Source: Promethearchaeota archaeon
Lineage (GTDB): Archaea > Asgardarchaeota > Lokiarchaeia > Sigyniarchaeales > SOKP01
Reading direction: 5' to 3'
Assembly: GCA_016840165.1 (NCBI GenBank)
Contig: JAEOSU010000051.1
Span: forward strand, 223,090 to 287,089
Length of the DNA stretch: 64,000 nt
In this document: in pieces, positions 23,990 to 28,467 of the stretch
Numbering within the stretch: the first letter of the stretch is position 1
How the letters are laid out: the number at the start of each line of letters is the position of its first letter
Program-made: the position numbers and the translations under genes
Notes under the pieces: model-generated
Seen by the model: only the letters and a program-made list of their open reading frames with translations
What the model was told of the DNA's origin: nothing
Database searches by the model: none

Positions 23990-24835
23990 TTATAATAGTA
24001 TATTTAATATTGCTTTAGAACCCCCAACCTTATCCAAATATTCAGCATGAGAATCAATGGAAACAAATTTTTGCTTATATTCAGAAAAGTCCATTTTTAG
24101 ATATTTTTGAATGTGCAATGCATCAAAAGTATAACGGTCATAGCAAGAAGTAGGATGAGCTCCAAATGGTAATTTTACGACTGCTTTGGTAGTTTGCATA
24201 GGTAATTGAGCTTTTCCTGGAAGATATCTTATATCTTCAGTTTCCACTAACCTCTCGCAAGTAATAATAGTTCTTTTTGCTGTTTTTGCCATATCATCAT
24301 CCATCCAGACCGCACCAGGAATATTTGCATTACCAAATTCATCAGCATAAGGAACATGGAGTATTGCTACGTCTAGATCTATTTTCGGAAGTGCCATTAA
24401 TTTTGTTCCTGAACCTAAGGGATCTTCAAATTCTTTAATGTCATCTCGAACTTTTGGAAAGTCCGTTCCAATTATTCCTTTAAGCGGCATAAAAGGAACT
24501 TTTAAATATGAACATTTTAAACCTAGTGCAATAGAAGCCTCGCTCTCTTCTGAGATAGTAACATTTCCTGATTCAACGGCTTTTCGGTAATGGGGAGCCA
24601 TACCAAACATTTCCATGCCTACAAAACAAGCTTTCACTTTTGAAATACAACCTCCGGCTATTAGCATATCTACTTCTATTCCCCCTACAAACGTACAGAC
24701 CGTGAGGTTTTTCTTTTCTTGTCTAATGATCTCGCGGACAGCAGCCATAGGTTTTCGCCAAAATGAGAGCCCTCCAAAACCAACTATATTTCCGTCTTCA
24801 ATATTATCAGAAATTGCTTCTTCTAATGACATCAA
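23990..24835 (-). CDS. Class I CoA-transferase-like alpha subunit (GctA/IpdA-like)
   Basis: GFGG...RKPMAAVREI, DVAILH...ADEFGNA, PFGAHPTSC. Confidence 0.87.
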   Translation of the reverse strand: MMSLEEAISDNIEDGNIVGFGGLSFWRKPMAAVREIIRQEKKNLTVCTFVGGIEVDMLIAGGCISKVKACFVGMEMFGMAPHYRKAVESGNVTISEESEASIALGLKCSYLKVPFMPLKGIIGTDFPKVRDDIKEFEDPLGSGTKLMALPKIDLDVAILHVPYADEFGNANIPGAVWMDDDMAKTAKRTIITCERLVETEDIRYLPGKAQLPMQTTKAVVKLPFGAHPTSCYDRYTFDALHIQKYLKMDFSEYKQKFVSIDSHAEYLDKVGGSKAILNILL

Positions 24836-25086
24836 TTTCGACTCTATTTCTAATCCCCTTATCTTATTTTTTTCTTTAGTGTTTTAAAAGAATAATTAGA
24901 AAAAATAGTTATTATGTTAAAAATATTTTTTACAGATTATAATAGATAATGTTAATTCATTTTAGATGAAATAAGTCAAGTTTCTGAAAAATTGATACTT
25001 GAATTGAATAAATACATTTTTATACCATAAACCGATAAAATTATCGTTAAAATAATATTTTTAGAGATGTAATTTCGGAGATTCTC

Positions 25087-28000
25087 TTGATAGTCATTAC
25101 TTTAAGTCATTTAAAACCATTTTTTAGACCATATATCTTTTTAAAAATACCAGATTCGGTTGAGAAGGATAAGCTTAGTCAAATCCCATTCTTAATGCAA
25201 ATGTATGATACTGGTTTTTTTAAGCATCTCTTTGGAACATTTAAAACAGCAAACTTATTATTTGAAATCCCCAGTGAATATTCAAGAACAAATAAAGAAC
25301 AATTATTAATTTCAATAATAATTGATAAAAAAGACAAATTTAATACTGAATTAACGCAGAAGCTTTTAGAAGAGTTTGTTAAAGAATTTAAAAAAATTGA
25401 ATCAGCTTTTAAAGCTTTTTATATCGACTCTCAAGTTTATAAAGGAGATATGGATAAGTATAATAAAGTTAAGAATCTATTAGATACTTTCTATATCACC
25501 TTTCCTAAGAAAGATGTAATATTTGAGCAAAAAGAAGCAAATGTGTTAGTTTTTGGTTTATATCTAGCTGGAAAAACTACACTCATAAGATGTAGACGAA
25601 AATCAATATCAAAAACTATATTTCCGACTATAAGTGTAGATATTTCTAGGATTTTAGTTAACAATGTCTCTTTATTAACATATGATACTCCTGGGCAATC
25701 TAAATTTAAAGAGATATGGAAACCATATCTAAAAAATCAAGATGGGTTAATTTTTGTGCTAGATATTACTGACAAAATTAAATTCCCGGATGCTTTCGCG
25801 CTATTAAATGAGATCGCAGGTCATCCAGAATTAAAAGAACTGCCCTTGCTCATTCTTTTCAATAAAATAGATTTAGAAAAACCGGATACCAATGAGATTA
25901 ATGATCTAATAAACGCAATGGATTTAGAAAAGTTAGGGAAGCGCCCGATAAAATACTTTTTAACAAGTGGGATTAAAAATATAAACGTGGATGAAGCTTT
26001 TAACTGGTTATCTTTAAAACTATCAGAAAGACTTGAGACATATGTTCCAAGGAGTGAGGTCGGAATAATTTTTTGTAGATGGGATGAAAATCTTGGCGTA
26101 AAGATTGAATTTGCATATCCTGAAGATGCATTCGAAGACCCTGAGTTAATCTCAATAAAGAGTTTTTCTGTTTCACAATTCTTTATAGCAGGTGCAGAAT
26201 TAAAACAAAGATCTGTTATTCTTCCCTTTCCTCATTTAAATTCATATGCTGCCGTTTATTTTGATTACATTCCAGATGAGAGTATTAGGGGCGGATTATT
26301 ACCTTTATGCCTTATCGTATATTATAATGAAAACTTTCCAAAAGAAATTATTAGCCATTTTAATAATTATATTTACGAATTGTTTGATAACATAAAGAAT
26401 AATTACCATGATAAAAGTAACATCATTAATTTAATCAAGTCAGCACAAAACGCAATAATAAATCAAATTGAGCAATTTAGACCCTCAATTGAAACTCTAA
26501 AGTTGGCTGAATTACGATATGAAGCTTTATTTAGAGCCGCGCGAGATGCAATCTTAATTATAGATCGACGCTCGGGCATTATAATCGATGCTAACAAACA
26601 AGCAGAAAAGTTATTCCAATTGCCTTTTGAAGATTTTATTGCCCTCCATTCAAGTCAGCTACTTACAGATGATATTAGTGTTGATTTTTACGAAAGAATT
26701 ATTATACAGATTGAAAACCCCGTACCTTTAATTACAAACATTATAAGTATATCCGGTAATCTTGTTCCTGTTGAAATTAGCGTAAATGAGATAAAAGTAG
26801 GTCAGCAATTATTAGTTCAGTGTATAATCAGAGATATTAGTAAGAGAATTGAGACTGAGCGAAAGTTATGGGAATCTGAAAATAAGTATCGACACCTATT
26901 CCAAGATTCTCCTTTTTCAATACTTTTAATCGATTCTAAAGGAGTTGTGGTTGATTGTAATCCCGCATTTGAAATATCCTTAGGATATAAAAAAGGGGAA
27001 TTAATAGGGAAAAAATTTGTTGAACTTTCCCTTATTCAAGAGGATTATTTAATCAATCTACTTAATAGATTTAAAAAAGATAAAAAAGATCGAATTTTTT
27101 CTCCAATCGAAATTCAACTTTATAAAAAAGATGGAAGTCTCATCTGGGCGTTAATGCAGACATCTATCGTCAAAATTGAGAATCAAACATACCATCAAAC
27201 AATCTGTCAAGAAATTACAGAAAAGAAGAAAATAGAACAAGATCTCGCCAAAATTTTGAAGTTCTTAACAATAATCACTCGCATTATATCAAAATTTATT
27301 GGAGTTAAAAATGTCAATAAAGCAATCTATGAATCTCTCAGAGAGATTGGGGACTTCATTAATTCAAATAGAATCTTTCTCTATATCTTCAATGAAAAAT
27401 ATAGTTTTATTGATAGATCCTTTATATGGTATTCAAAAGTGACATATCCGCAGTTAGAACCTCTTAAAAAAATAGACTCTAACAGTTTTCCTTGGTTAAA
27501 TGAGAAACTTAAGACTAATGACTATTTCTATATACAAAATATAGATGATCTTCCAAGTACAGCAAAATCTATAAAGTCATTCCTTCAAGATCAAAATATT
27601 ATGAATTGTCTTGTATATTCAATTAAAATTAATGATGTGCTAGAAGGTTTAATTTTCTTTGGGAATATTTTAGACGATGATTATTGGGGATTTAAACGTT
27701 TCGATACTCTATGTATTTTTCCTGAGATCCTTGTAAATGTCATAGAGCGTGAAGTAATTCAGGAAGGTGTACTTATGAGTGAACAAGAATTTCACCGCCA
27801 ATTTGATCAGGAATATTTCTATCGAGAACTCTTTGTAAATGACATTTATAATATAGTTAACAGTCTTTTAACTCTAATTGAGGAGTTTAGTAAGCAACAA
27901 TCTCAATTTCCAACAACTTTTTCAAAAAATTGGTTAAATAATGTTATTAGTCAATGTACAAATAGTTTACAGTTAATCTCAATTATCCGTACACTAACTC

Positions 28001-28467
28001 TTCTTAATGAATCAAAAATAGTAATAAAACGAGTTGATATCAAGGAAATAATTGAGGATGTCTTAGATTATTTTGTAAAAGTATATATAAATAAAAAGAT
28101 AAACCTAACAATCGAAATCCCAGATGAGAATATTTATCTTTTAGCTGATGATTTCTTATTTGACGTTTTTACAAACATTATATTTAGCTCCATAAAATAT
28201 AATCCAAATCCATTAGTTGATTTTAAAATAATAATTTATCGAACACTTCAAGATAACATAAATTATGTTAAAATTGAATTTGTAGATTATAAGAGTGAAA
28301 TTTCCCATATACAAAAGGAAACTCTGTTAATAAAAGACATTGAGAAAGATAGTAACATTAAGGAACTTCTCATAGGTTTCCTTTTGGTTGAACAAATTTT
28401 AAATAACTATAATGGTAAAATCTGGGTTGAAGGAGGCAATTTTGTGATTATGATTCCTGAAGGGTGA
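25087..28467 (+). CDS. Multidomain signalling protein: longin/uDENN-like - Arf-like small GTPase - longin/uDENN-like - PAS - PAS - GAF - degenerate histidine kinase
   Basis: GTPase motifs G1 GLYLAGKTT, G2 PTI, G3 DTPGQ, G4 NKID, G5 TSG. PAS motifs (ARDAILIID..G.IIDAN...RDIS.R; SPFSILLID..G.VVDCN). Kinase remnants VNDIYN, VFTNII..SIKY, NGKIWVE. Confidence 0.85.
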   Translation: MIVITLSHLKPFFRPYIFLKIPDSVEKDKLSQIPFLMQMYDTGFFKHLFGTFKTANLLFEIPSEYSRTNKEQLLISIIIDKKDKFNTELTQKLLEEFVKEFKKIESAFKAFYIDSQVYKGDMDKYNKVKNLLDTFYITFPKKDVIFEQKEANVLVFGLYLAGKTTLIRCRRKSISKTIFPTISVDISRILVNNVSLLTYDTPGQSKFKEIWKPYLKNQDGLIFVLDITDKIKFPDAFALLNEIAGHPELKELPLLILFNKIDLEKPDTNEINDLINAMDLEKLGKRPIKYFLTSGIKNINVDEAFNWLSLKLSERLETYVPRSEVGIIFCRWDENLGVKIEFAYPEDAFEDPELISIKSFSVSQFFIAGAELKQRSVILPFPHLNSYAAVYFDYIPDESIRGGLLPLCLIVYYNENFPKEIISHFNNYIYELFDNIKNNYHDKSNIINLIKSAQNAIINQIEQFRPSIETLKLAELRYEALFRAARDAILIIDRRSGIIIDANKQAEKLFQLPFEDFIALHSSQLLTDDISVDFYERIIIQIENPVPLITNIISISGNLVPVEISVNEIKVGQQLLVQCIIRDISKRIETERKLWESENKYRHLFQDSPFSILLIDSKGVVVDCNPAFEISLGYKKGELIGKKFVELSLIQEDYLINLLNRFKKDKKDRIFSPIEIQLYKKDGSLIWALMQTSIVKIENQTYHQTICQEITEKKKIEQDLAKILKFLTIITRIISKFIGVKNVNKAIYESLREIGDFINSNRIFLYIFNEKYSFIDRSFIWYSKVTYPQLEPLKKIDSNSFPWLNEKLKTNDYFYIQNIDDLPSTAKSIKSFLQDQNIMNCLVYSIKINDVLEGLIFFGNILDDDYWGFKRFDTLCIFPEILVNVIEREVIQEGVLMSEQEFHRQFDQEYFYRELFVNDIYNIVNSLLTLIEEFSKQQSQFPTTFSKNWLNNVISQCTNSLQLISIIRTLTLLNESKIVIKRVDIKEIIEDVLDYFVKVYINKKINLTIEIPDENIYLLADDFLFDVFTNIIFSSIKYNPNPLVDFKIIIYRTLQDNINYVKIEFVDYKSEISHIQKETLLIKDIEKDSNIKELLIGFLLVEQILNNYNGKIWVEGGNFVIMIPEG

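Follow-up and report, generated by a model that had tools for sequence, protein, structure and literature searches.

A 64,000-nucleotide stretch of a Promethearchaeota archaeon genome (assembly GCA_016840165.1, contig JAEOSU010000051.1, positions 223,090 to 287,089 of the forward strand) was analysed and is referred to as the window; all gene positions are counted within it unless another contig is named. The gene at 25087-28467 (+) encodes a soluble, cytoplasmic multidomain signalling protein of Lokiarchaeia (Promethearchaeia in the NCBI taxonomy), in which an Arf-family small GTPase lies between two longin domains and is followed by two PAS domains, a GAF-like domain and a histidine kinase module that has lost its catalytic motifs. 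The proposed reading is a GTPase switch under sensor control: the two longins would regulate the GTPase within their own chain, most likely as an internal GTPase-activating protein (GAP; rough probability 0.55). The protein thus seems to connect a sensor of bacterial style with a GTPase switch of eukaryotic style.

The gene had been picked out by a sequence-only reading, which described it as an Arf-like GTPase with longin-type flanks fused to PAS-PAS-GAF and a dead kinase. The open reading frame (ORF) and all motif strings quoted there were confirmed in one intact frame, 25087-28467 (+), and the proposed architecture was borne out by domain calls and structural models.

Gene and domain order

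The gene and its domains were delimited as follows, in the order longin, Arf-family GTPase, longin, PAS, PAS, GAF-like, DHp, CA (aa, amino acid residues).

25087..28467, + strand: whole gene, single ORF of 1126 codons (1126 aa), TTG start, stop at 28465-28467, soluble protein
25077..25080, + strand: GGAG Shine-Dalgarno-like motif six bases ahead of the TTG, as read from the sequence
25087..25524, + strand: N-terminal longin, aa 1-146; AlphaFold2 predicted local distance difference test (pLDDT) 92; invariant Pro15, Arg67 in the beta4-beta5 loop
25525..26019, + strand: Arf-family small GTPase, aa 147-311; G1-G5 intact; Gln204 at the catalytic position
26020..26502, + strand: second longin, aa 312-472; AlphaFold2 pLDDT 84; W332-D333 and G337 (WDxxxG), R401-G402
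26515..26856, + strand: PAS domain 1, aa 477-590; Pfam PAS_8/PAS_9 (~477-580), NCBIfam sensory_box
26872..27246, + strand: PAS domain 2, aa 596-720; PAS_9 at 610-712 (E 1.7e-22), TIGR00229 at 596-720
27250..27801, + strand: GAF-like domain, aa 722-905; weak support in this copy
27802..28041, + strand: DHp (HisKA-like) helical hairpin, aa 906-985; Asn918 at the position of the phospho-accepting His
28042..28464, + strand: degenerate CA (HATPase_c-like) domain, aa 986-1126

Homologues start at the residue aligned with the TTG-encoded position. No membrane segment was predicted across the 1126 residues (highest 19-residue Kyte-Doolittle mean, 1.44), and no Pfam model matched residues 1-146, 312-472 or 722-905. 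The quoted strings were located in the GTPase (GLYLAGKTT 157-165, PTI 180-182, DTPGQ 200-204, NKID 259-262, TSG 293-295), in the longins (YSRTNKE 65-71, WDENLGV 332-338, IRGG 400-403) and in the kinase module (LFVNDIYN 915-922, NIIFSSIKYN 1030-1039, VDYKSEI 1066-1072, LLIGFLL 1094-1100). Against an 83%-identical orthologue, the ratio of non-synonymous to synonymous substitution rates (dN/dS) was 0.035-0.24 across all domains, and constraint was strongest in the second longin (0.035), PAS1 (0.044) and the GTPase (0.049).

Fold of the flanking domains

In the eukaryotic pairs FLCN-FNIP, NPRL2-NPRL3 and C9orf72-SMCR8, two longins together build a catalytic pocket with GAP activity towards Rag or Arf GTPases, and such longin-pair GAPs (GATOR1, folliculin, C9orf72-SMCR8) underlie growth control and membrane traffic. 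For both flanking domains, AlphaFold2 models from family alignments were assigned the order beta-beta-alpha-beta-beta-beta-alpha-alpha by DSSP, without an N-terminal roadblock helix. The second longin ends in a long helix (~443-471) that runs on into PAS1. In Foldseek searches, the top matches of both domains included the GATOR1/SEAC longin chain 9v0j_A (E 1.4e-4 for the N-terminal and 1.6e-4 for the second longin), the Lst4 longin, FLCN-FNIP2 and the Loki longin 8yqg (from a Lokiarchaeal roadblock-longin protein); 4zy8 and 6ulg are listed for the second longin.

Structural similarity was ranked by VIA Z scores, given here for the second and the N-terminal longin, respectively. The highest values for the second longin were obtained with the Loki longin 8yqg_B (15.3 and 13.2) and Lst4 (13.1 and 11.3), followed by 6nzd_H of the folliculin complex (12.2 and 13.4), GATOR1 chains (~12 and 12.2-12.6) and C9orf72-SMCR8 (11.1 and 10.5 for 7o2w_A; 10.6 and 9.2 for 7mge_C). 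Ykt6, VAMP7, Sec22, TRAPP and adaptor longins scored 9-10, DENND1 longins only 9-10, and roadblock domains ~8. A longin fold of both flanking domains is well supported by these models, and on the same models the GAP class of longins (FLCN/NPRL2/Lst4/C9orf72-SMCR8) is favoured over a generic longin by a modest margin.

Both flanks had been described beforehand as longin/uDENN-like and linked to DENN/longin regulators of small GTPases. AlphaFold domain parsing upheld the longin part for both domains, but they are closer to GAP-class longins than to the DENN guanine nucleotide exchange factors (GEFs) of Rab GTPases, and neither a DENN nor a dDENN domain was present in Pfam calls or in the alignment of relatives, where the longins directly precede the GTPase or PAS1. 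The N-terminal domain had also been taken for a more degenerate relation of the second, which sequence comparison does not show: although their alignment is colinear, hhalign gave a probability of 2% (E 0.025), and a common origin of the two longins is not supported at this level.

The GTPase

The GTPase was assigned to the Arf family by Pfam (PF00025 at 147-309, E 7e-31, 107 bits against a cut-off of 22.3; Ras, 54 bits, E 1.7e-14). Its nearest PDB sequences are Sar1, Arf1, Arl6, Arl1 and Arl8 (E 3e-20 to 1e-16), and G157, G162, K163, T181, D200, G203, N259, K260 and T293 are invariant in 30 diverse relatives, all in keeping with the Arf/Sar type and intact G1-G5 motifs first read from the sequence. 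The Arf-type N-terminal amphipathic membrane helix is not present; the 146-residue longin precedes the GTPase core instead.

Across homologous clusters, the residue after DxPG, which is Gln204 in this copy, is Gln in 60, Lys in 51, His in 4 and Tyr in 4. The Lys variants read DIPGK or DVPGK (relatives P0013-P0072; the column corresponds to window positions 25696-25698).

Longin motifs across the family

According to a 2025 survey (PMC12290439), three eukaryotic longin GAP complexes are marked by an arginine finger and by a GP motif where beta2 begins. There, C9orf72 W33-D34 lies five residues ahead of G38-P39, the SMCR8 finger is R147, and the GP motif is reported absent from non-GAP longins; Asgard longins with GP and Arg motifs are described as well, and the archaeal client GTPase is posed as a question.

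In the second longin studied here, W332-D333-x3-G337 has a spacing identical to that of C9orf72 W33-D34...G38. W332 is conserved in 119 of 120 clusters, D333 in 118 and G337 in all 120; in the model, the beta4-beta5 loop contains R401 (117/120) and G402 (118/120). The following position, 338, which corresponds to the P of GP, is Pro in 9 of 120 clusters and Val in this copy. In the first longin, P15 is invariant in the 93 scorable clusters and G14 is found in 35 of them, in more distant relatives. R67, also placed in the beta4-beta5 loop of its model, occurs in 74 of 120 clusters and is nearly invariant across longin-GTPase proteins and paralogues. It is present in all 53 clusters with Gln204 and lost in 33 of the 40 in which Gln204 is replaced. 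R67 is lost only in lineages without Gln204, where R401, W332 and G337 stay invariant.

The GP motif, the Arg and the Gln are all kept in two-domain longin-GTPase proteins of ~320 aa (L009-L024, from other families of the class). Longin-GTPase-longin proteins without sensors also exist (L025 and L027), of 499 aa and, with a Cys-rich C-terminal extension, of 652 aa. The longin type with GP and Arg motifs occurs stand-alone and in many longin-PASn and longin-PASn-kinase proteins.

Elsewhere in the source genome, the N-terminal longin has three paralogues, in all of which the GP and Arg motifs are clear. Apart from the first, one has an uncharacterised 220-residue tail and one is nearly stand-alone.

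Contig C48:19490-22993, L002 355-2040, - strand: longin paralogue 1, longin-PAS-GAF-PAS, 561 aa, without GTPase
Contig C63, L004 1471-2592, + strand: longin paralogue 2
Contig C67, L006 636-1316, - strand: longin paralogue 3

Complex prediction

For complex prediction, residues 1-311 with GTP and Mg were modelled against the second longin, together with three controls. The prediction gave weak support for an interaction (ipSAE 0.32; best control 0.00). At least 93% of contacts were consistent between runs, and the partner pLDDT was at least 72. Of solved complexes, 58 of 80 attain the ipSAE mark applied; of mismatched pairs, 2 of 110 do. Passing values no higher than 0.60 came from just 7 of the 80 solved complexes and from both mismatches that passed.

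Sensor domains

Both PAS domains were called by Pfam, and a PAS profile, TIGR00229, lay above threshold (E 2.9e-37). For the GAF region, no Pfam model matched in this copy; 5 of 30 aligned relatives match GAF or GAF_3, and a family profile of residues 722-905 (A7) matches GAF-containing chains (6oap, E 3.6e-4; 6bhn, E 3.5e-3).

Directly before the DHp hairpin, the string E-F-H-R (residues 901-904, window ~27787-27798) carries a His that precedes the canonical H-box position by ~14 residues. All GAF-containing relatives have this His (H182 of A7, long form) without exception, whether the canonical His is kept or not. It is read as part of a signalling helix, though it is also a conceivable alternative phospho-acceptor.

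Loss of catalysis in the kinase module

The family profile of the C-terminal 230 residues (A8) matches HK853 and other histidine kinases at E 1e-15, and NCBIfam PhoR/PnpS models match in part, over residues 932-1041. Pfam HATPase_c at 1022-1121 stayed below cut-off in this copy (E 0.045) and matches 24 of 30 relatives (up to 1.3e-16); HisKA is matched in 3 of 30. In the H-box column, Asn was counted in 69 clusters, His in 23 and Gln in 12. The CA domain has Ser1034 for the N-box Asn, DYKSE for the G1 motif DNGIG (DxGxG) and LLIGF for the G2 box, and the lid segment 'DKVKGDYSKG' of intact relatives is deleted. Asn for His, the Ser N-box, a DYKSE or DYQKE G1, a degenerate G2 and the segment deletion are shared by 62 clusters of the same clade. 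Intact motifs (F-T-H-D, 'NA..YN', 'DNGIG', 'DKVKGDYSKG') are found in shorter relatives of 830-970 aa (P0087, P0098, P0100 and P0106).

Judged from its sequence, the kinase module is catalytically dead, with the His and the ATP-binding residues lost. The sequence-only reading had said as much, and comparison with relatives in which the His, the N-box Asn and DxGxG are preserved agrees. A correlation of kinase decay with the GTPase fusion, which that reading suggested checking, is not supported, as the same head is joined to the apparently intact kinases of P0087, P0098, P0100 and P0106. The presence of the same longin-GTPase-longin head on intact kinases indicates that the fusion preceded kinase death and that decay took place in one clade. 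The dead module has remained constrained (dN/dS 0.155 for DHp and 0.154 for CA, same orthologue), and this purifying selection points to a non-catalytic role.

Distribution and integrity of the family

In a word-indexed search of clusters at 90% identity (source assemblies from NCBI, JGI, ENA and Logan), more than 120 clusters matched residues 1-475 over nearly the whole query with 42-87% identity and the domain order kept. Among 400 genomes of the phylum, 68 had a match at E <= 1e-30. The gene is carried by 58 of 134 genomes of its own family and 13 of 41 of its own genus, and it also occurs in a few other families within that order and class; by GTDB classification, none of the matches in these 400 genomes lay outside the class. 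Matching NCBI records are mostly entitled 'Promethearchaeota archaeon' or 'Promethearchaeia archaeon', that is, Lokiarchaeia. Some close homologues carry the NCBI labels Thor-, Hod-, Hermod- or Odinarchaeota; these labels were not used as a sign of wide Asgard spread, the genome search having returned one class. A profile was also run against 1.84 billion representatives; archaeal-like architectures were seen in all of the best 150 of its 595 matches.

A contig of 4178 bases from an unrelated soil-metagenome study spans 24823-27961 with ~96% identity and no gaps, so that all junctions up to the DHp are bridged. A singleton or a misassembly, which the sequence-only reading had named as a possible objection, is excluded by the >120 clusters, the 58 of 134 genomes and this independent contig.

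Several metagenome studies of soil, marsh and sediment contain close relatives (~96% identity over window 24823-27961), and the exact gene sequence was present in marine-sediment runs. No RNA data were listed among the public runs that carry the gene.

Neighbouring genes and an antisense frame

The neighbouring genes are metabolic and bear no relation to 25087-28467. No response regulator or conserved operon partner was found next to the gene, and across ~30 loci no flanking gene recurred in more than 6. The sole recurrent ORF is an antisense frame within the gene itself (window ~25730-26220, - strand, inside the GTPase/longin region; cf. L029 3642-4136), found at 21 of ~30 orthologous loci. 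Rather than a gene, this frame is most likely a side effect of the conserved, AT-rich coding sequence.

Proposed mechanism and alternatives

In the proposed mechanism, the two longins would pack as a pseudo-heterodimer around the GTPase between them and, most likely as a GAP within the same chain, control whether it holds GTP or GDP. The finger would be Arg67 of the first longin, working with Gln204; the second longin would complete the pocket with its WD/G motif and Arg401, as the WD of C9orf72 does for SMCR8. Coupling of the longin-GTPase module to the PAS-PAS-GAF sensors may run through the long helix that joins the second longin to PAS1. With the GAP module under PAS/GAF control, ligand or redox sensing would set the duration of the GTP-bound state, in which the GTPase would engage effectors. 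The dead DHp/CA would serve only to dimerise or scaffold, and phosphotransfer would not be the output in the clade of this gene. A narrower version, a single-chain ligand-gated Arf switch that is the archaeal counterpart of the eukaryotic longin-pair GAPs and in which PAS/GAF gate the Arg-finger pocket, is offered as a tentative suggestion and is itself on the doubtful side.

Several points weigh against a built-in GAP. Nucleotide binding, hydrolysis and GAP activity of the longin-GTPase head are predictions from sequence and models. The GAP-class assignment is drawn from a fold ranking, with a margin of 2-3 Z units, and from short motifs; the Pfam Folliculin (PF11704) and NPR2 models match neither longin (in Pfam scans of relatives, the Folliculin model matched 1 of 30 second longins, at E 0.2, and 0 of 32 N-terminal longins), and the longin sequence profiles gave chance matches only against PDB sequences. 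This copy has R14-P15, that is RP and not GP, in its first longin and GV in its second. The link between R67 and Gln204 amounts to ~2-3 independent contrasts on the tree and is not significant (sign test, p 0.25-1). The complex prediction passed weakly and listed no contacts, and a placement of Arg67 or Arg401 at the nucleotide is not supported by it. A large sister clade has Lys at the catalytic Gln, and fast hydrolysis is therefore probably not essential to the function of the family. The N-terminal modules of histidine kinases are usually inputs, and the signal could run from the GTPase to the C-terminus.

In one alternative, the longin-GTPase-longin head is the input, through which the GTPase would report either the GTP/GDP state of the cell or the action of a GEF or GAP upstream. 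The pseudokinase would then be the output, forming heterodimers with active paralogous longin-PAS kinases or titrating them or their response regulators, in the way that the RetS kinase module acts on GacS. The head, N-terminal to PAS and kinase, stands in the usual input position, and its occurrence on kinases with intact motifs (P0087, P0098, P0100, P0106) implies that it once fed a working kinase. The dead DHp/CA is itself under purifying selection (dN/dS ~0.15), the same longin type heads many longin-PAS-histidine kinase proteins that are possible partners, some genomes hold the long dead form together with a ~950-aa form, and the PDB matches of the kinase profile include RetS. However, no second full-length paralogue of the family was found in the source genome, no conserved partner gene lies nearby at the ~30 loci, and the GTPase and second longin are far more constrained than DHp/CA. 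An input head is considered unlikely. The signal may run in either direction, and the earlier claim that a two-component output was rewired to a GTPase switch is not borne out to that extent.

The longin pair might instead be an exchange factor or a clamp on one nucleotide state (cf. TRAPP, Mon1-Ccz1, DENN, Ragulator), with the Arg, WD and G residues structural. By established knowledge and according to PMC12290439, most characterised longin/roadblock regulators are GEFs or scaffolds and not GAPs, a further point against a GAP here. The longins of DENND1B, Mon1-Ccz1, Fuzzy-Inturned and TRAPP also match at Z 8-10. R401 and the WD pair remain invariant in the clade in which Gln204 is replaced by Lys, and they are thus not tied to Gln-dependent hydrolysis. 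Yet the best structural matches are GAP-class longins, R67 is lost only where Gln204 is lost, and the GP motif is ancestral in the family, a motif that the survey reports as absent from non-GAP longins; an exchange factor or clamp is rated as rather unlikely. A gene in decay, or a chimera created by assembly, with no function of its own would fit the degeneration of both enzymatic modules (the kinase here, Gln204 to Lys in the sister clade), but the intact ORF, the low dN/dS in every domain, the same order in more than 120 clusters, the carriage by 58 of 134 family genomes and the gapless ~96% soil contig speak against it. As far as can be told from sequence, conservation excludes it, and it is given hardly any credence.

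If the protein is a single-chain GAP switch, the fusion names the client class (Arf-like) of the Asgard longins with a GP motif, and the coupling of metabolic sensing to a longin GAP would predate eukaryotes. Residues 1-475 form one small construct in which GAP or GEF activity, the parts played by the Arg, WD and GP positions, and control by the sensors are open to direct assay. The relatives form a graded series (longin-GTPase; longin-GTPase-longin; the same with an active kinase; with a dead kinase; and with a GTPase without the Gln), which may represent an evolutionary path on which a two-component sensor shed phosphotransfer and retained a eukaryote-like GTPase module.

Comparison with known systems

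Among the nearest known systems is C9orf72-SMCR8(-WDR41), in which a longin pair forms one catalytic pocket on an Arf-family GTPase; the GTPase here is Arf-like as well. The GP motif and R147 of SMCR8 would correspond to the (G)P and R67 of the first longin, and WDxxxGP of C9orf72 to W332-D333...G337 of the second. Unlike C9orf72-SMCR8, the present protein is one polypeptide without DENN/dDENN or WDR41, and its second longin has an invariant Arg of its own; homology is not detectable at the sequence level, and the GAP role proposed here is taken from fold and motifs. The Rag/Gtr GAPs FLCN-FNIP2/Lst7-Lst4 and GATOR1 NPRL2-NPRL3 provide the best structural matches, and an Arg in the beta4-beta5 loop and, family-wide, a GP motif are probable further parallels; they too are tied to sensing, of nutrients in eukaryotes and through PAS/GAF here. 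The client in the present protein is Arf/Sar-like and not Rag-like and lacks a roadblock C-terminal domain, and neither DENN nor the NPRL2 C-terminal domain is present, nor do the Pfam Folliculin and NPR2 models match.

RetS-type pseudokinases likewise keep the DHp/CA fold after loss of catalysis, and selection on them is maintained; RetS acts by binding the kinase GacS, whereas the N-terminal half of the present protein is a GTPase module. In MglA-MglB, a prokaryotic small GTPase is also under a dimer of roadblock/longin-superfamily domains, but MglB is a separate roadblock homodimer without an Arg finger, and here longins are fused to both sides of the GTPase.

The published Asgard longin fusions (Liu et al., Tran et al.) come from the same organisms and use the same building blocks. 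In Liu et al. (2020 preprint/2021), longin-GTPase fusions and an NPRL2-like longin fused to two-component domains are described for Asgard archaea, and it is proposed that growth is controlled there through two-component systems with eukaryote-like regulators; in Tran et al. 2024, L-G, G-R and L-G-R architectures are catalogued in MK-D1. No description of longin-GTPase-longin-PAS-PAS-GAF-kinase in one chain was found in published text (figures and supplements lay outside the search), nor one of the kinase-dead state or of the WD/GP/Arg motif pattern of such fusions, and no paper on the LokiRag/Roadblock-Longin structures (PDB 8yqg, 8yl2, 9m28) was found. A bridge between prokaryotic and eukaryotic signalling, put forward as new in the sequence-only reading, had in its general form already been published by Liu et al. 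With that general theme (an NPRL2-like longin joined to two-component domains) in print, what is new here, and where the value lies, is the specific and testable longin-Arf-longin-PAS-PAS-GAF-pseudokinase arrangement.

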